A stretch of DNA of 64,000 nt from the NCBI GenBank assembly GCA_022646745.1, contig CP060262.1, forward strand, positions 1,751,149 to 1,815,148, written 5' to 3'. Below, piece after piece: positions 6,479 to 13,516 of the stretch; within the stretch, counting starts at the first letter, position 1; each line of letters begins with the position of its first letter. The stretch is from Planctomycetales bacterium. GTDB lineage: Bacteria; 4484-113; JAFGCY01. The notes under the pieces are model-generated. The model was not told where the DNA came from and ran no database searches. It worked only from the letters and a program-made list of their open reading frames with translations. Made by a program: the position numbers and the translations under genes.

Positions 6479-8029
6479 ATGACAGGAAAGGAGCTGGCCT
6501 CCTATTACCGGGCTGCGGTAGAGTACATCGACCCGCGGCTGCGGGATGACTGTCCCGTCGAGGACATCTGTGCCGCCGCCAAGGCGCGCCAGCATGCGCT
6601 GCGCGCACATGACAGCGACACCGCCCGCCTGGAGCTCGAGAAGATTGAGGAGGCCCTGCAGTTCATCCAGCGTGTGCACCCGGATGTGGTCGATATCTGC
6701 CGGGAGCAGGTGACTGCGGAATATGCCGCAGAAGTTGAACCAGCGTTGGATCTTGCGCATATTGCCCAGTCTGAACCGGAAGTGCAGGATGCCAGCCAGC
6801 TGGTCGCGGATTTCCATGCGGAGGAAGCAATACAGCCTGCCGTGGAAACCGACGAGGCCTCCCTAGTTGACAACTCCGTTGCCGCGCCGGCTGAACGCGA
6901 TGACTACGCCGGTGTGCTGCTGAGCGGCACGACTGCGGATCCCGCGGAAGACGAAATGGTCGAGCTCGTGCTCGGTTCCGGCAGCCATTTCGAGGCGGCA
7001 GTGGAATCCGCAACTGAACTGGAGACAGCAACGGCGGATGAACCGGAACCGGAAGCCATCAGTATTGATTTCGCCGCTGAGCCGCAGGTCATCCAGCCGG
7101 AATCCGTGCTGGAAATTGACGACGCGATTGCTTCCAGTATTGACAACGAAGCTGAAGCAGAATCAGGCGATGCCGGCAGCGAGCTGGCCGCCGCCATGGC
7201 TGCCTCGCGTGAGCATGTGGAAGTGCCGAGCCGCCACCAGTTCATCGCTGAACTGCGAGAGCGCCGCCTCAGCAGCCAGCATGAACTGGCCGCAGAGGAA
7301 GCCGAGCAGGTCATTTCCGAACTGCGTGAGGAGCAGCACAGCGAGGAGCGCGTCAGCGAGCTGATCAGCCGCGTGCCTGATGTCAGTGAACGCATGGAAC
7401 AGGAGCTGCAGCAGGAAGAGCAGACCAGCCGCCCGCTGGACTTCCGCAGCCTGATGTCACGCGCCGGTGCCAACCCGTCGCTGAAGGTCCGCCCAGCCAG
7501 CCGTCCGCGCCTGAAGACCGAGGAAATCCTCGGGCGGGAGAGGCCGGCGCGCCGGATCCCGGAGGAACACGCTGCTCCGATCCTGCTTGGGATGCTCATG
7601 ATCCTGTGGCAATTCAGTGCTGCGCTGCTGGCCGGATTTGCGCTCAGCCGTGCACTGGTCTGGCATTTCGGCACAGCCTTCTCATCCATGACCCCAATCA
7701 AGGCATTATTCACCTGCCTGGTAGGCCTCGGTACGGCCGCCCTGATCGGCGCCGGATTCCGCTATTACCGCCTGCGCAGCCACCGGCTGTCCCTGCCGGT
7801 GCACGTCAGTGCGCTGTCCATCGTGATGCTGCTGCTGTCCTGGCAGTTCAGCGCGAATGCCAACGCCTATGCCAGCGGCCCGCCGTTATGGCTGTGGTGC
7901 ATGCTGTTCGCCGCCTGGCTGGTTGCCACAATCGCCGCCGGACTGCACGACCTGCGTGTGCCGCCTGTCTCTCGTGATCCGGAATCGGAAGTGGTAGCTG
8001 CCAAGCCTGCGGTACCGCTTGCCAACTGA
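6479..8029 (+). CDS. Acidic (E/A/D-rich) protein with C-terminal multi-TM anchor, hypothetical
   Basis: 516-aa ORF. The N-terminal ~350 aa are highly acidic and low-complexity. The C-terminal ~150 aa contain 3-4 hydrophobic helices (ILLGMLMILWQFSAALLAGFAL..., ALFTCLVGLGTAALIGAGF..., LSIVMLLLSWQF..., LWLWCMLFAAWLVATIAAGL). Confidence 0.6.
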   Translation: MTGKELASYYRAAVEYIDPRLRDDCPVEDICAAAKARQHALRAHDSDTARLELEKIEEALQFIQRVHPDVVDICREQVTAEYAAEVEPALDLAHIAQSEPEVQDASQLVADFHAEEAIQPAVETDEASLVDNSVAAPAERDDYAGVLLSGTTADPAEDEMVELVLGSGSHFEAAVESATELETATADEPEPEAISIDFAAEPQVIQPESVLEIDDAIASSIDNEAEAESGDAGSELAAAMAASREHVEVPSRHQFIAELRERRLSSQHELAAEEAEQVISELREEQHSEERVSELISRVPDVSERMEQELQQEEQTSRPLDFRSLMSRAGANPSLKVRPASRPRLKTEEILGRERPARRIPEEHAAPILLGMLMILWQFSAALLAGFALSRALVWHFGTAFSSMTPIKALFTCLVGLGTAALIGAGFRYYRLRSHRLSLPVHVSALSIVMLLLSWQFSANANAYASGPPLWLWCMLFAAWLVATIAAGLHDLRVPPVSRDPESEVVAAKPAVPLAN

Positions 8030-8526
8030 GATTTCCACCGATTCAACTGAGATATTCCGAAAATTCTCGAAATTTCTTTAGCCCTGTCCAGCACAGGGCT
8101 CAACGCATTCCGGTGCGGTGATTTTGCAGGATTTCGTTGCCATTTGGGGAACAAAGCAGCCAGGCTGCTCGTCTATCTGCCCGTGATGGGGTTCCTCCCC
8201 AGTCACGGAAAACAGAGTCGGATTGCCAAGTTATGCAACCGTATAGGAGGCAATGGATGACGGAGAAGGATGATAAGCCGCGAGAACCGCGCATGCTGCC
8301 AGGGAGCACTGGCAGCGACCGTGATCCGGGATGCGTCCCGTTGACACGGTACCCGGGCTGTACCAGCCAGGCCACACGCACCGACGGCCTGTAGCGACCA
8401 CGGACTGCAGCCCTGACCTGATTCACTGAACCACGGCCGTGCGTGCACGGCAAGCCACGGGCTCAGTGCATCCCATACCAAGCTTTGCAGCGGCGCTGCC
8501 GACTGTGGCCGCCGCGAGGAGGAAAC

Positions 8527-8610
8527 ATGCTGGTCATGCTCGCATTGATACTGACAACGCTCTGGGTCCTGGCAATGCTGCCTGGGACCGTGCCACAGAC
8601 ACGCTTCTGA
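8527..8610 (+). CDS. Candidate 27-aa hydrophobic micro-peptide (MLVMLALILTTLWVLAMLPGTVPQTRF)
   Basis: Near-consensus SD GAGGAGGAAAC sits immediately before the ATG. A single TM-like helix. Not in the ORF track because of its length. Confidence 0.25.
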   Translation: MLVMLALILTTLWVLAMLPGTVPQTRF

Positions 8611-8699
8611 TCCGGGACCACCGGGCAGGCACAGGAATCTCATTCATCCGGTGGCTGGATCACCGGAACAGGGACCGGTTTGGTCCACGGGAGGAAACA

Positions 8700-9116
8700 A
8701 TGTACTACCTTGACAACAACAACAATGACAACATCAACAGCTGGCAGAACCATGGCCTCGACAATGAGGACCGTGACGGCGCGCAGTTCGGAGAGGACGT
8801 GCGCTACAGCATTGACAACGGGCAGGAGAGCCTGGAGTCAGCCTGGAAGTCACGGATGGCCGAGATCGACGGCTACATCACCCAGTTCATGCATGAGGCC
8901 GATGAGCTCTCCGAGGAGATGATCGATGACCTCAGCCACAACTTCAGCGAGTGGTGGGAGAAGCAGCCGATGTCCGACAAGGTCCGTGCCGAGTGGCAGA
9001 AGGCCAGGGCAGACGGCAAGGTGGTGCGGGCCCGCATGGAGCAGCGCCTGACGCACCTGGTTGAGGATGGCAAGCTCAAGTGGAAGGAATGGACCCGCCG
9101 CAACGGCGCCGGATAG
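8700..9116 (+). CDS. Small soluble protein, paralog A of a 3-member family (138 aa)
   Basis: RBS GGGAGGAAACA before ATG 8700. The C-terminal region (RAEWQKARADGKVVRARMEQRLTHLVEDGKLKW) aligns with the proteins at 9763 and 10131. Confidence 0.6.
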   Translation: MYYLDNNNNDNINSWQNHGLDNEDRDGAQFGEDVRYSIDNGQESLESAWKSRMAEIDGYITQFMHEADELSEEMIDDLSHNFSEWWEKQPMSDKVRAEWQKARADGKVVRARMEQRLTHLVEDGKLKWKEWTRRNGAG

Positions 9117-9186
9117 GCGACCCCGCGCAGCATCCACTGACAAGCACTGACTGGGCGGCCGCCGTGCGACCGCCGGGAGAAATCCA

Positions 9187-9339
9187 ATGCTTTACACCAT
9201 CGCCGTAATCCTGATCATCCTCTGGCTGCTGGGACTCGTCGGGTTCCCGACCATCGGAGGCTTCATCCACATCCTGCTGGTGATCGCAATCATCATGATC
9301 CTCGTGAACATCATCAGTGGACGCCGCGCGATCCTCTAG
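9187..9339 (+). CDS. lmo0937-family micro-membrane protein (50 aa), copy 1
   Basis: MLYTIAVILIILWLLGLVGFPTIGGFIHILLVIAIIMILVNIISGRRAIL with RBS GGGAGA. Matches the widespread ~50-aa lmo0937-type two-helix peptide pattern (…ILWLLG…HILLVIAI…GRR). Confidence 0.7.
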   Translation: MLYTIAVILIILWLLGLVGFPTIGGFIHILLVIAIIMILVNIISGRRAIL

Positions 9340-9494
9340 GAACACCACTGCATTCCATCCTGTGCGGGAGGTGCCCACGGCCTGGTGGCCCCTCCCCCCA
9401 ATGATGCCAACGAACTACACCATCCGGTCCCGCTGCCCTGCAGCGGGGCCGGGAATAAACCAAACCAACCTGTCCGGTTGAAGTGAGGAGAACA

Positions 9495-9644
9495 ATGCTT
9501 TACACCATCGCCGTAATCCTGATCGTCCTGTGGCTGCTCGGATTCGTGGGATTCCACGTACTTGGCAACTTCATCCACATCCTGCTGGTGATTGCGATCA
9601 TCATGATCCTCGTGAACATCATCAGCGGCCGCAGGCCACTTTAG
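9495..9644 (+). CDS. lmo0937-family micro-membrane protein (49 aa), copy 2 (tandem duplicate)
   Basis: MLYTIAVILIVLWLLGFVGFHVLGNFIHILLVIAIIMILVNIISGRRPL with RBS GTGAGGAG. Identical to copy 1 except a 6-residue central loop and the last 2 aa. Confidence 0.7.
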   Translation: MLYTIAVILIVLWLLGFVGFHVLGNFIHILLVIAIIMILVNIISGRRPL

Positions 9645-9762
9645 GCAGTGGAATCGGGAACTTTTCCCGGCCTCCCTTCGTCTGTAAACTCGCAGGGGGC
9701 CGTGGGTGGACCCCTGCGAGTTGTCAGACTGCCACGGCACACTGCCGGATTCGGAGGCAAGT

Positions 9763-10083
9763 ATGACCATCAGAGAACAAAGCACCAGCGCCCAGGGCTG
9801 GCAGCGCGAATGGGAAGAGCGGACGGACCACATCGACACCCTTATCATGCGCTATACACGCCGCTGCGGTGAGCTGACATCCGACCGCGTGCAGCGCCTG
9901 ACCGACGAGCTCCGGCTCTGGTTTGACCAGGAAGTGCCCCACATCAACTACGACCCCGACTGGCAGCGCACGAAGTGCGATCCGCATTGCCTGCAGCAGC
10001 TGCTTGCCGGGCGCCTCAGCCACCTGCTGGCGGACAACCGCCTGTATATCTCGGTTGTCGAGGCCCCGGTTGTTGAGGAGTAG
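9763..10083 (+). CDS. Small soluble protein, paralog B (107 aa)
   Basis: RBS GGAGG 5 nt before ATG 9763. The W..W…ID and C-terminal RLSHLLADNRL motifs align with paralogs A and C. Confidence 0.6.
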   Translation: MTIREQSTSAQGWQREWEERTDHIDTLIMRYTRRCGELTSDRVQRLTDELRLWFDQEVPHINYDPDWQRTKCDPHCLQQLLAGRLSHLLADNRLYISVVEAPVVEE

Positions 10084-10130
10084 GCACAGGCTCCGGTTAT
10101 CCGTGCGGACACGCGGATGGGAGGCAAGCC

Positions 10131-10454
10131 ATGAATGTTGATTACCAGACTGAGACGGAGCAGTTCGGGGCCTGGGAGGCCGCCTGGAGCAAGCACTGTC
10201 CGGAGATCGACCGGCGCATCGTCCGCTTCATGGAGGACAGCCCAAGCTTCAGCCCCGAATCGCTGGCTATCCTGACCAGTGAGATCAGTGACTGGCTGGA
10301 TACGCGCCAGATCAACGGGGAAGCCTGGGTGGAGTGGCGCCGGATCAGGCTTGAGCCGGACTGGCTGCGGGCTCGCGTCGAGCAGCGCATTGCGCATCTC
10401 GTGGCGGACGGCAGCCTCAGGCTCAACATCTGGCGCGAGGGCTGGCACTACTAG
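10131..10454 (+). CDS. Small soluble protein, paralog C (107 aa)
   Basis: RBS GGGAGG before the ATG. The C-terminal RARVEQRIAHLVADGSLRL is nearly identical to the paralog A motif. Confidence 0.65.
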   Translation: MNVDYQTETEQFGAWEAAWSKHCPEIDRRIVRFMEDSPSFSPESLAILTSEISDWLDTRQINGEAWVEWRRIRLEPDWLRARVEQRIAHLVADGSLRLNIWREGWHY

Positions 10455-10515
10455 CCCTCTGTCCGCTGGGGTCCGCAGCAGCCGGATTTGAATTCAGCGC
10501 GCATTCTGGGCGATA

Positions 10516-11328
10516 ATGTTTCACGTGCTGAGGTTGAGATGTATCTACACAGGTATGCTGCTGGCGCTGCTGCAGCTTGGTGCTGCGCAGGCCCAGACGC
10601 ATGACCTGAATGAACTGTCCTGCAAGTCCTACCTGATCTTCGACCTGCAGAGTGAACGCATCGTGGCCCAGGGCAACCCGGACCGCAGCCAGCCGATTGC
10701 TTCCATCACGAAGCTGATGACGAGCATCCTGGCGGCCGAACGCCTGCGCTTCGATGGCCGCTACATCCTGACCGCGGAGGAACAGAAGACCTTCCACTGT
10801 GAGACGATGCGTGGGCAGAAGATGCTGGAGATGATGCTGATCCCGAGCAACAACAAGATGTGCAGCGTGGTGGCACGCATCATCAGCGGCTCCGACGACG
10901 CCTTCGTGAAGGAAATGAATGCCAAGGCGCAGCAGCTCGGGATGTACAACACACGTTTCGCGACCCCGAGCGGCCTGCCGCGGGACGGGCAGTACTCCAC
11001 GATGGAGGACGTGCTGCTGATGACCCGCGTGGCGCTGACCTACCCGCGAATCCGTGATGCGATGACCCGTGAAACGGTTGAACTCAACGGCGAGGTCTAC
11101 TCCGGTACCCTGCGCGACCTGTATGGCCGCCATCCGGGACTGATCGGTGGCAAGACCGGCTACACCAATGCGGCCGGGCGCTGCCTGACCCTGTGGTACC
11201 GCAGCGGCGGGCGCGACTACATCGTGATCACCCTGTGCAGCAAGGGCAGCAAGTCTAGCTTCCGCGACGCCGAGATCCTGCTGAGCAACTTCGGCCTGTG
11301 GGACGGCGAGGTCGGTGCCTGGGAATGA
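10516..11328 (+). CDS. D-alanyl-D-alanine carboxypeptidase (S11, low-molecular-weight PBP)
   Basis: Signal peptide, SxxK (SITKLMT), SxN (SNN) and KTG motifs in the canonical order and spacing. Confidence 0.8.
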   Translation: MFHVLRLRCIYTGMLLALLQLGAAQAQTHDLNELSCKSYLIFDLQSERIVAQGNPDRSQPIASITKLMTSILAAERLRFDGRYILTAEEQKTFHCETMRGQKMLEMMLIPSNNKMCSVVARIISGSDDAFVKEMNAKAQQLGMYNTRFATPSGLPRDGQYSTMEDVLLMTRVALTYPRIRDAMTRETVELNGEVYSGTLRDLYGRHPGLIGGKTGYTNAAGRCLTLWYRSGGRDYIVITLCSKGSKSSFRDAEILLSNFGLWDGEVGAWE

Positions 11329-12419
11329 CGCGCTGCCTGCCGCTCCTGCTGCTGGCGCTGGTGCTCTGTGCATCATGTGAACAGCTGCAGCGCGCGGCGA
11401 ACAAGCCCGGCGGCGTATTCGGGCCATCCGAGAAGGTGCTGCGGGAGTACCATGACTCGCGCTGGCAGGCCGTTGTCAATGCGGTGGCAGAGGGCAGTGA
11501 TGAAGTCGTGCTGCCGGATGAACCGGAAGTGCCGAAGGCACTGGAGAAGCTGAACCTCGAGCAGGGCTACCAGGCGCTGGCTGCCAACCGCACTTCCGAA
11601 GAGCTGAGCTGGCAGGCCCTGATAGAGCAGAGTGACCTCAGCATGCGCTTCTCGGCGGAGGTGCTGGACGTGCTGGAGCGCAATGACGCGGACAGCATCA
11701 GCCAGATCGTGCCGCAGATTGACGACTATGCCTCGCAGCAGGAGACGGCGATGTCCGACTGGCGCGCACTGCGCAGCCAGCTGCGCGGCAGCCTGGACTC
11801 CCTGCAGCAGGACTGGGACAGTGCCTGGCCGGACAACGAGTTCGACTTTGACCTGCTGGCCCAGGTGGAGCGCATCCAGGCGGACCAGCTCGGGCGGCTC
11901 AGCCCGGAACGGATCGCTGCGCTGACACACTACCATGACAACGAATTCTCACGGCTGGCAACGGACTACCTGGAGTATGAACCGGCGGAAGCTGAGGAGA
12001 TCAGCGCCGTGGCGCATGTGCCGGCGGACTGCGAGGGCATCAGTGATGCCACGCGCCGGCTGGAGGCCGCGCTGATCGTGCGCCATGCGCTGGACAGCGC
12101 GATCGTGCGTGACCGCGAGCTGGTGGAGAGCTACGTGCCGGGCGTGCTGGGCAAGGGCCCGATCAGCAATGTGAGCATCCCGGACACGCGCTACGGCAGC
12201 CACCGCGCGCGGCTGGCCGTTGCCAGGCTGGAGCTGTACAGCATGCTCGACGGGCTGGTGACGGATGTGCTGGACGTGATGATCTACGATGTCAACCGGG
12301 AGTGGACGCTGGCCTGGCCGGGCAATGAGCTGGAGAACAACATCTTCGCCTATGCCGGGGTGCAGCAGACGGTGCCGCGGCTGGAGGACCCCTACGAGGC
12401 CCCGGCGTCCAAGCCCTGA
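11325..12419 (+). CDS. Hypothetical lipoprotein (364 aa)
   Basis: MTRCLPLLLLALVLCASC lipobox start. The ATG overlaps the dac stop (ATGA). Acidic soluble domain. Confidence 0.6.
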   Translation: MTRCLPLLLLALVLCASCEQLQRAANKPGGVFGPSEKVLREYHDSRWQAVVNAVAEGSDEVVLPDEPEVPKALEKLNLEQGYQALAANRTSEELSWQALIEQSDLSMRFSAEVLDVLERNDADSISQIVPQIDDYASQQETAMSDWRALRSQLRGSLDSLQQDWDSAWPDNEFDFDLLAQVERIQADQLGRLSPERIAALTHYHDNEFSRLATDYLEYEPAEAEEISAVAHVPADCEGISDATRRLEAALIVRHALDSAIVRDRELVESYVPGVLGKGPISNVSIPDTRYGSHRARLAVARLELYSMLDGLVTDVLDVMIYDVNREWTLAWPGNELENNIFAYAGVQQTVPRLEDPYEAPASKP

Positions 12420-12679
12420 GCTGACAGTCGGTCCAATCCCGCTTAAGCCCCGGTGAACTCCCTGACAACCCACTTGGCCCCGGTGTTTCCATGCCTTAGG
12501 CTCTAGCCGTGGAAGACAAAGCAACAGTTGAGCAGCTGCAGCAGCGCGTCGAGCAGCTGGAGGCGCAGGTGGCGGGCCTGCTGGAATCAAACCGCAATAT
12601 CGTGGATGCCCTGCGCCAGATCGAGAGCTGGATCGTGAATGCCAGCAAGGTGCTGACAGCGCAGATCCAGCAGCAGGGT

Positions 12680-13516
12680 TCAGGCGAGCAGGGACAGTAG
12701 GTAGCGGCCCAGTTCCGCTTCGCCGTTGTCAGGCAGCACATGGCTTGCCAACGCCAGCGCCTGCGGATGGGAATGGCCCATTGCCACCGCCCTGCCGGCT
12801 GCTGCCAGCATCGGCAGGTCGTTGGCATCGTCGCCGACGGCCATGGTCTCACTTATGTCCAGCCCGAGCAGCTGCGCGAATCTCCCCAGCGCCCAGCCCT
12901 TGTTGCCATCGGGATGGAACACCTCCAGTGCGTGGCAGGGCATGCGCGGCCAGAGCACGCATTCGGCGAACACATCGTCGCCAAGCCCGGTTTCAAGGGT
13001 GCGCTTGCCTTCGAGCACGAGCTCCTCAGTGCCGGGCATGCTCAGCTGCAGCACCTGGCGCTCGGGCAGCTCTTCGAGTGATGCAATCGTGCCGCCGCGT
13101 GCGCCATACTCCGAGAAGTAACGTGTCTGCAGCACGGACTCGGCGCGCTTAAGCCAGGCGAAGTCCATCGGGTCCTCGTCATCCCATTCGAAGTAGAGGT
13201 TCAGCGAATGCGGCTCCAGCAGGGAGACGGCCTGCTCGACGAGGCGGTGCTCCAGCGGCTTGCTGGCCAGCCGGGTCCAGTCAGGCAGCTGCCAGAGCTG
13301 GGTGCCGGAGTTGCTGCTGGCGAGGATCGGCAGGCCGATCTGGTCCATGTAGGGTTCGAGGGTGGTGCGCCGCCGGCCGGTGATCACCGCCAGCGCCACG
13401 CCGGCTTCATGCAGCTCACGCAGGGCCCGCAGGTTGATCTCCGGGATGCGGTGGTCATCGACGGGCAGCAGCGTGCGGTCGAGGTCCAGGGCGATCAGCT
13501 TTGGCAGGGTGGGCAC
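12680..13516 (-). CDS. HAD-superfamily hydrolase, Cof-type (HAD-IIB)
   Basis: N-terminal LIALDLDRTLL (DxDxT motif I). Downstream GDDANDLPML motif IV. Confidence 0.8.
   Translation of the reverse strand: MPTLPKLIALDLDRTLLPVDDHRIPEINLRALRELHEAGVALAVITGRRRTTLEPYMDQIGLPILASSNSGTQLWQLPDWTRLASKPLEHRLVEQAVSLLEPHSLNLYFEWDDEDPMDFAWLKRAESVLQTRYFSEYGARGGTIASLEELPERQVLQLSMPGTEELVLEGKRTLETGLGDDVFAECVLWPRMPCHALEVFHPDGNKGWALGRFAQLLGLDISETMAVGDDANDLPMLAAAGRAVAMGHSHPQALALASHVLPDNGEAELGRYLLSLLA

Follow-up and report, generated by a model that had tools for sequence, protein, structure and literature searches.

Three paralogous genes, designated A, B and C, lie at positions 8,700 to 10,454 of a 64,000-nucleotide stretch of DNA (the window) from Planctomycetales bacterium (assembly GCA_022646745.1, contig CP060262.1). 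They encode small soluble proteins of a family absent from the databases searched, and this family is recurrently linked, here and in other genomes, to genes for DUF5670 (lmo0937-type) membrane micro-proteins, two of which, m1 and m2, stand between A and B. A promoter motif of the RpoE-like extracytoplasmic function (ECF) type is conserved within the cluster. Our preferred interpretation, to which we give a probability of roughly 0.45, is that A, B and C belong, with the micro-proteins, to a module for envelope or membrane stress, in which these cytoplasmic proteins are either partners of the micro-proteins or companions under shared control. An earlier note, made from the letters of this DNA, had suggested a stress-induced or membrane-associated module; that suggestion gains independent if indirect support from the linkage, from the conserved ECF motif and from the sigma-B dependence of lmo0937 (PMC7690807), while its functional part is something that we infer.

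Contigs labelled "bacterium isolate UBP7 HKST-UBA01" match the DNA of the window at 94% identity, and the same A protein is also deposited at NCBI under "Planctomycetales bacterium". The UBP7 genomes of the HKST series were obtained from saline activated sludge (PMC8495973).

Paralogy and coding status of A, B and C

Pairwise BLASTP bears out the paralogy proposed in the earlier note: A and C share 35% identity over 86 residues (E 4e-18), A and B 23% (E 3e-10), and B and C 24% (E 3e-11). The motifs that had been listed as shared are present, namely a W-x3-W pair, an (E)ID..I..F block and a C-terminal EQR(L/I)xHL(V/L)xDGxL, and the strong Shine-Dalgarno (SD) sites take the form of GGAGG at 5–6 nt upstream of every ATG. 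Of the lengths first given (138, 107 and 107 residues), those of A and C are right, but B has 106; and to call the tails of A and C nearly identical was an overstatement, the two agreeing at 11 of 20 residues. The window contains no family members besides these three and no DUF5670 genes besides m1 and m2.

A word-indexed search of 5.8 billion proteins returned only five relatives each for A, B and C. These form three orthologous groups that differ in their conserved C-termini: ...GKLKWKE(W/L/M)T in the A group, ...SVVE(A/S)PVVEE in the B group and ...W(R)xGWHY in the C group. The groups are kept in 5–6 related genomes at 45–95% amino-acid identity, and so are the reading frames, start codons, SD sites and lengths. 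Ratios of nonsynonymous to synonymous substitution (dN/dS, Nei-Gojobori) between genomes range over 0.10–0.65 for A, 0.08–0.30 for B and 0.22–0.50 for C, with most values at 0.1–0.3, compared with 0.09–0.15 for the S11 peptidase gene downstream. Because they lie well below 1, the three frames are protein-coding, and A, B and C are true genes under purifying selection. The earlier note had allowed that they might turn out to be unconserved, non-coding open reading frames (ORFs), and a genome of 62% GC does yield many long chance ORFs; but that idea is refuted by the conservation and the dN/dS values just described, by the 52 protein clusters elsewhere that match the family profile, and by the confident compact fold given by AlphaFold. 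The three genes evolve faster than their neighbours: between the window and the related locus L001, amino-acid identity is 57–70% for the family, 82–92% for the micro-proteins and 92% for the S11 peptidase.

A family without catalogued relatives

The earlier note recognised no family, and our searches agree, with no match for A, B or C in Pfam, NCBIfam, PADLOC or PHROGs and none in the PDB by sequence or fold. In Pfam and NCBIfam nothing appeared at E≤1 except a chance match of 12 bits, and 0 of 58 family members reach a Pfam gathering score; assignment to a known domain, the outcome that the note had named as fatal to its claim, was obtained in none of the four collections. The family profile has no sequence relatives in the PDB (HMMER, best E 0.24), and Foldseek, proposed in the note for use on AlphaFold models, gave no hit in either PDB or BFVD. 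When 1.84 billion representative proteins were searched with a profile built from 14 sequences, 52 clusters scored E≤1e-3 and 33 of these E≤1e-10, and narrower alignments used as scan queries located four genome loci and one metagenome locus. The family is rare. Neither IMG/VR nor plasmids yielded relatives, on which ground a mobile origin was ruled out.

The AlphaFold2 model of C (58 sequences; predicted local distance difference test, pLDDT, 79.9; predicted template modelling score, pTM, 0.69) has five predicted helices at residues 8–21, 23–36, 42–58, 64–73 and 76–93, which would form a folded helical core (pLDDT 83–92) followed by a tail predicted to be disordered. In C numbering, the family signature comprises W15, W19, [IV]26, D27, I30, W55, R86, L90 and G94, all of which except W15 and [IV]26 are invariant or nearly so across the 58 members, and the central conserved motif is W-[FL]-[DE]-x-Q. 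The proteins were described at the outset as soluble, and their composition fits: A, B and C have no hydrophobic segment, an isoelectric point (pI) of 4.8–5.2, a net charge of −6 to −11 and a grand average of hydropathy of −0.6 to −1.2. They are unusually rich in tryptophan (7, 4 and 8 residues, respectively) and contain 2.8–6.5% glycine. A Lys/Trp-rich C-terminal segment is present in A and many distant members, and some members carry long Gly/Gln/Ser-rich tails; low complexity is confined to the tails of some distant members.

Linkage to DUF5670 genes

The co-location with membrane micro-proteins seen in the first reading of the DNA is real. Both m1 and m2 are bona fide members of the DUF5670/lmo0937 family with two hydrophobic helices, and their scores (Table 1) exceed the cut-offs of 23.5 bits for PF18919 and 30 bits for NF033488. 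The micro-proteins end in a basic GRR tail. In Listeria, lmo0937 is sigma-B dependent (PMC7690807, PMC3225968) and is targeted by the small RNA Rli51 (PMC11394854), data which fit a stress role for the micro-proteins and do not address mechanism.

Related genomes share the syntenic order M42 peptidase, membrane protein of about 516 residues, A, m1, m2, B, C, S11 D-Ala-D-Ala carboxypeptidase and a protein of about 367 residues. The earlier note had proposed looking for co-occurrence with lmo0937-type genes in other genomes; contigs with distant members were scanned with hidden Markov models of the family and of the micro-proteins. Of 11 non-redundant loci, 9 show the linkage, and their flanking genes belong to at least three unrelated contexts. 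With the sizes of family proteins in residues and m for a DUF5670-like gene, the same-strand arrays read 149-161-m-m-113 in L015; 106-118-158-106-m-107-m-118, plus a weaker third micro-protein match, in L017; 107-m-(72)-m-80-130-107-106 in L018; 103-m in L019/L020; 107-m-184-...-110-m-135-110-107-...-105, with seven family members, in L021; 108-m-107 in L010; 148-m-107 in L022; and 128-98-m in L023. The flanks differ by lineage, being the S11 peptidase gene in UBP7-type genomes, xseA and Ank/ATP-synthase genes in L018, and rsfS in L019. An 84-kb contig with the same flanks as L018 holds many small genes, four of which encode 49–50 residues, two of these being DUF5670 by Pfam. In the window, in L001/L003/L006, in all of the L-numbered arrays just listed and in the 84-kb contig, family genes stand on the same strand as, and some 30–250 nt from, DUF5670-like genes. 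There are 1–7 family copies per array and two micro-protein genes in most of the longer loci. The exceptions are L009, discussed below, and L024, a 1.2-kb contig with three family members.

Other small proteins, rich in Lys, His/Gln or Pro, are encoded in the arrays of L021 (6939–8360) and L018 (2347–2589). They belong to no Pfam family and are probably disordered, and the arrays look like mixed small-protein islands. In L015, the 90 nt upstream of the two DUF5670 genes (8607–8696 and 9019–9108) are identical, indicating that the pair may have arisen by a recent duplication or conversion that included the leader.

ECF-type promoter motif

Counted over both strands of the 64 kb, the pattern GGAAC-N17-CGTC occurs twice, against 0.40 occurrences expected, and the extended form GGAAC-N17-YGTCT yields the same two sites, P1 and P2; both are intergenic, on the coding strand and inside the cluster. 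The −35 element GGAACTT is that of E. coli sigma-E, and CGTC or CGTCTAA is the −10 element of ECF02-type, RpoE-like promoters (PMC3397946, PMC2893595). The sites combine the promoter features expected of an RpoE-like ECF regulon: a GGAAC −35 element, a CGTC-type −10 element, ECF spacing and an upstream position. P1 is identical in L006 and L012 and has a variant at the aligned site in L001 and L003 (GGTAT for CGTCT), and a P2-type motif stands at the equivalent site in L001, L003, L006 and L009 (TGTCTGA). Upstream of family genes the motif is also found in L015 (TGTCTAA) and L017, and in the distant L021 array it precedes the first family gene by about 120 nt. Every match with a 17-nt spacer in the loci scanned falls in intergenic regions of such clusters, matches elsewhere having other spacings.

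The S11 peptidase gene downstream has its own conserved sigma-70-like promoter, so that it does not necessarily belong to the transcription unit of the cluster. At 10,488–10,525, a conserved TTGAAT-N18-GATAAT overlaps the annotated ATG of this gene, which suggests that its mRNA may be leaderless, starting at the GTG at 10,525.

Proposed role and alternatives

Under the stress-module interpretation, two RpoE-like ECF-sigma promoters would transcribe the cluster, P1 serving the small ORFs, A and m1, and P2 serving B and C. Since two such promoters appear to drive it, an envelope or membrane stress signal would presumably switch the cluster on. Alongside the micro-proteins, and perhaps in physical contact with them, the soluble proteins would work at the inner membrane face as partners, stabilisers or regulators. 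Lys/Trp-rich segments are typical of membrane-interface binding; such a tail in A and in many distant members may assist in this, as may the aromatic tail of C, and the conserved acidic PVVEE-COOH end of B could be a docking peptide. The pairing of acidic family proteins (pI ~5) with the basic GRR tails of the micro-proteins argues for such an arrangement. A bolder proposal makes the family a dedicated cytoplasmic subunit or regulator of the DUF5670/lmo0937 micro-proteins, the two together constituting a new ECF-controlled membrane-stress complex that the tails of A, B and C would tune to different partners. This we consider unlikely; if true, it would provide the first mechanistic handle on DUF5670 micro-proteins.

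Several observations weigh against a stress module of partners or companions. The arrays of L018, L019 and L010 did not yield the ECF motif in their upstream DNA, and a crude regular-expression search for ECF signatures, in itself not conclusive, recognised no ECF sigma gene in the window. L009 carries B and C on an 8-kb contig with no DUF5670 gene; the two can thus occur with no micro-protein gene beside them. The ratio of family to micro-protein genes varies (3:2, 6:2 and 7:2, and at other loci 1:1 or 2:0) and therefore gives no sign of a fixed 1:1 complex. Finally, the distant loci may represent one deep lineage, the linkage then being due in part to common descent.

The variable ratios and the existence of L009 also make it plausible that A, B and C serve as cytoplasmic protectants or regulators of a general kind and merely share a stress island with DUF5670, being co-regulated with it and having no physical or functional coupling to it. 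The long Gly/Gln/Ser-rich tails of some members, the sub-threshold YtxH-like match of one (E 1e-5), and the unrelated small hydrophilic proteins, probably disordered and rich in Lys or Pro/Gln, that occur in L018 and L021 point in the same direction. We nevertheless hold simple co-regulation to be rather unlikely: a family gene directly followed by a DUF5670 gene, 29–92 nt away, is found in the window, L001, L003, L006, L010, L018, L019, L021 and L022 despite their differing flanks, and apart from DUF5670 the arrays hold no stress family that could be recognised, such as CsbD, BON or Usp.

A small hydrophobic protein adjoining a small acidic soluble one also brings to mind a toxin-antidote-like module, in which the 50-residue proteins would be membrane-damaging toxins and the soluble proteins their neutralisers. 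The rapid evolution of the soluble family relative to the micro-proteins and the S11 peptidase in the same two genomes, the variable copy number and the strain-level mosaic between the window and L006 would suit this. Toxin-antitoxin systems are defined by a fixed two-gene 1:1 unit, usually overlapping or coupled, whose second partner relieves the toxicity. Here there is no 1:1 pairing, no gene pair is overlapping or translationally coupled, and each gene has a separate SD site and spacer; this lack of coupling, and the fact that the supposed toxin would be the better conserved partner, make the idea improbable. PADLOC has no match, and the family was not found on plasmids or viral contigs. 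DUF5670 occurs widely without the family and is not known as a toxin. In Listeria it belongs to the sigma-B regulon (PMC7690807). Less probable still are two other kinds of array, one of immunity proteins and one of secreted substrates resembling WXG100/Esx, even though a size of about 100 residues, an all-helical prediction, conserved tryptophans, tandem arrays of variable copy number and fast divergence would all be expected of them: Pfam gives no WXG100 or immunity-family match at E<1, the central motif stands in place of a WxG turn, and none of the called neighbours has a recorded toxin, Rhs, CdiA or FtsK/EssC-type ATPase domain.

The almost constant encoding of the soluble family beside DUF5670 would be a concrete lead for studies of interaction and function. 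In addition, the work adds a protein family that is absent from Pfam and NCBIfam and has no fold match in PDB or BFVD; its source is a candidate phylum represented by UBP7-type genomes from saline activated sludge (PMC8495973). The rarity of the family and its confinement to uncultured lineages restrict how far the result reaches.

Other features of the locus

The positions of all features are collected in Table 1. Two small ORFs lie between P1 and A. In the first, of 45 residues, the SD site, the N-terminus MT.K.D.PRE.R and the position of the stop codon are kept in L001 and L006 and the remainder is poorly conserved; with only these ends conserved, its coding status is uncertain. The second, of 27 residues, is conserved in L001, L003, L004 and L006 and may represent a third kind of micro-protein in the unit. 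The palindrome before A, GGACC-N5-GGTCC, also precedes the A orthologs and, in L017, two A/C-like paralogs, and could be an operator or an RNA stem. The notion that GC hairpins preceding SD sites are special to this cluster was rejected, as they are not stronger than those at 67 other candidate genes of the window (Mann-Whitney p 0.13); among such hairpins, only the palindrome upstream of A-type genes stays noteworthy.

The spacer between m1 and m2 shows 81% column identity in four genomes, exceeding that of the flanking coding DNA, with one compensatory pair change in the second hairpin and an invariant stretch, CAACGAACTACACCA, between the hairpins. A structured RNA was considered and rejected, Rfam returning nothing at gathering threshold over the window and one chance match (E≤1) over 7,900–10,600.

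Compared with L006, a closely related strain, the segment 9,163–13,356 is a mosaic, 100% identical from about 10,157 to 13,356 and 82–87% identical across m1, m2 and B, and the m1 of L006 appears to have been converted to the m2 type. The pattern suggests recombination or gene conversion, or possibly a strain-chimeric assembly. Within the 516-residue gene at 6,479–8,029, a hypervariable acidic stretch (6,574–6,973) has 63–77% nucleotide identity to L006, versus 92–97% on both sides.

Table 1. Features of the cluster, with positions counted from the first nucleotide of the window
Feature	Position	Strand	Remarks
A	8700..9116	+	138 aa; Asn/Asp-rich N-terminal extension, Lys/Trp-rich tail
B	9763..10083	+	106 aa; conserved C-terminus ...VVEAPVVEE
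C	10131..10454	+	107 aa; 8 Trp; tail WREGWHY
m1	9187..9339	+	Two-helix micro-protein, 50 aa; PF18919 E 5e-15, 55.7 bits; NF033488 E 2e-17, 62.9 bits
m2	9495..9644	+	Micro-protein, 49 aa; PF18919 E 2e-15, 56.9 bits; NF033488 E 4e-18, 65 bits
P1	8148..8174	+	ECF (RpoE-like) promoter motif GGAACAAAGCAGCCAGGCTGCTCGTCT; upstream of two small conserved ORFs and A
P2	9657..9683	+	ECF (RpoE-like) promoter motif GGAACTTTTCCCGGCCTCCCTTCGTCT; 80 nt upstream of B
45-aa ORF	8257..8394	+	Possible hydrophilic ORF with SD site; about 80 nt downstream of P1
27-aa micro-ORF	8527..8610	+	Single helix (MLVMLALILTTLWVLAMLPGTVPQTRF); GAGGAGG SD site; between P1 and A
Palindrome	8672..8686	+	GGACCGGTTTGGTCC; directly upstream of the SD site of A; single match in window
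m1–m2 spacer	9366..9448	+	Conserved; two GC hairpins (9366–9397, 9429–9448)

Comparison with known systems

Like RpoE-like (ECF02-type) regulons, the cluster has GGAAC, a 17-nt spacer and CGTCT(A/G), which fit the sigma-E −35 element and the CGTC/CGTCTAA −10 element (PMC3397946, PMC2893595), and it adjoins a cell-wall gene, that of the D-Ala-D-Ala carboxypeptidase. It differs in that the S11 peptidase gene is served by its own sigma-70-like promoter; the promoters of the cluster itself are predicted from their motif.

With the WXG100/Esx proteins the family shares a size of about 100 residues, a helical nature and occurrence as tandem paralogs. Membership of that group entails a PF06013 match, a central WxG turn and nearby type VII secretion genes; the family has neither the match nor the WxG, five predicted helices replace the two-helix hairpin of WXG100, and no FtsK/SpoIIIE-type secretion ATPase was found among the neighbours of the family loci examined. 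Hydrophilins and proteins resembling the late embryogenesis abundant (LEA) type are disordered, contain more than 6% glycine and are strongly hydrophilic throughout. As disordered protectants of this sort A, B and C were rejected, given their predicted folded core and the glycine contents reported above.

By analogy, the family may be likened to the YtxH-like (PF12732) and ElaB/YqjD/YgaM (DUF883) proteins, which are small helical hydrophilic proteins of stress regulons acting at the membrane. YtxH-like proteins are recognised by a profile match above 37.5 bits plus an N-terminal membrane anchor; A, B and C have no such match or transmembrane anchor, and the hydrophobic element is here a separate gene. 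One of the 58 members, P0027, matches the helical part of the YtxH profile with residues 15–65 (E 1e-5, 26.2 bits). A YtxH-like tail fusion in P0032 and P0039 was also considered and rejected as absent, the in-domain, sub-threshold match of P0027 being the only one.

A comparison can also be made with the linked partners, the DUF5670/lmo0937 proteins themselves. In our literature search, no paper described a soluble protein family dedicated to accompanying DUF5670. Like the sigma-B-dependent lmo0937 (PMC7690807), m1 and m2 sit in an apparent alternative-sigma stress unit; A, B and C differ from them in being soluble, about 105 residues long and without sequence relation to DUF5670. The type of system, small proteins under an alternative sigma factor beside stress micro-proteins, is familiar, and the novel element is the specific, recurrent pairing of this family with DUF5670.

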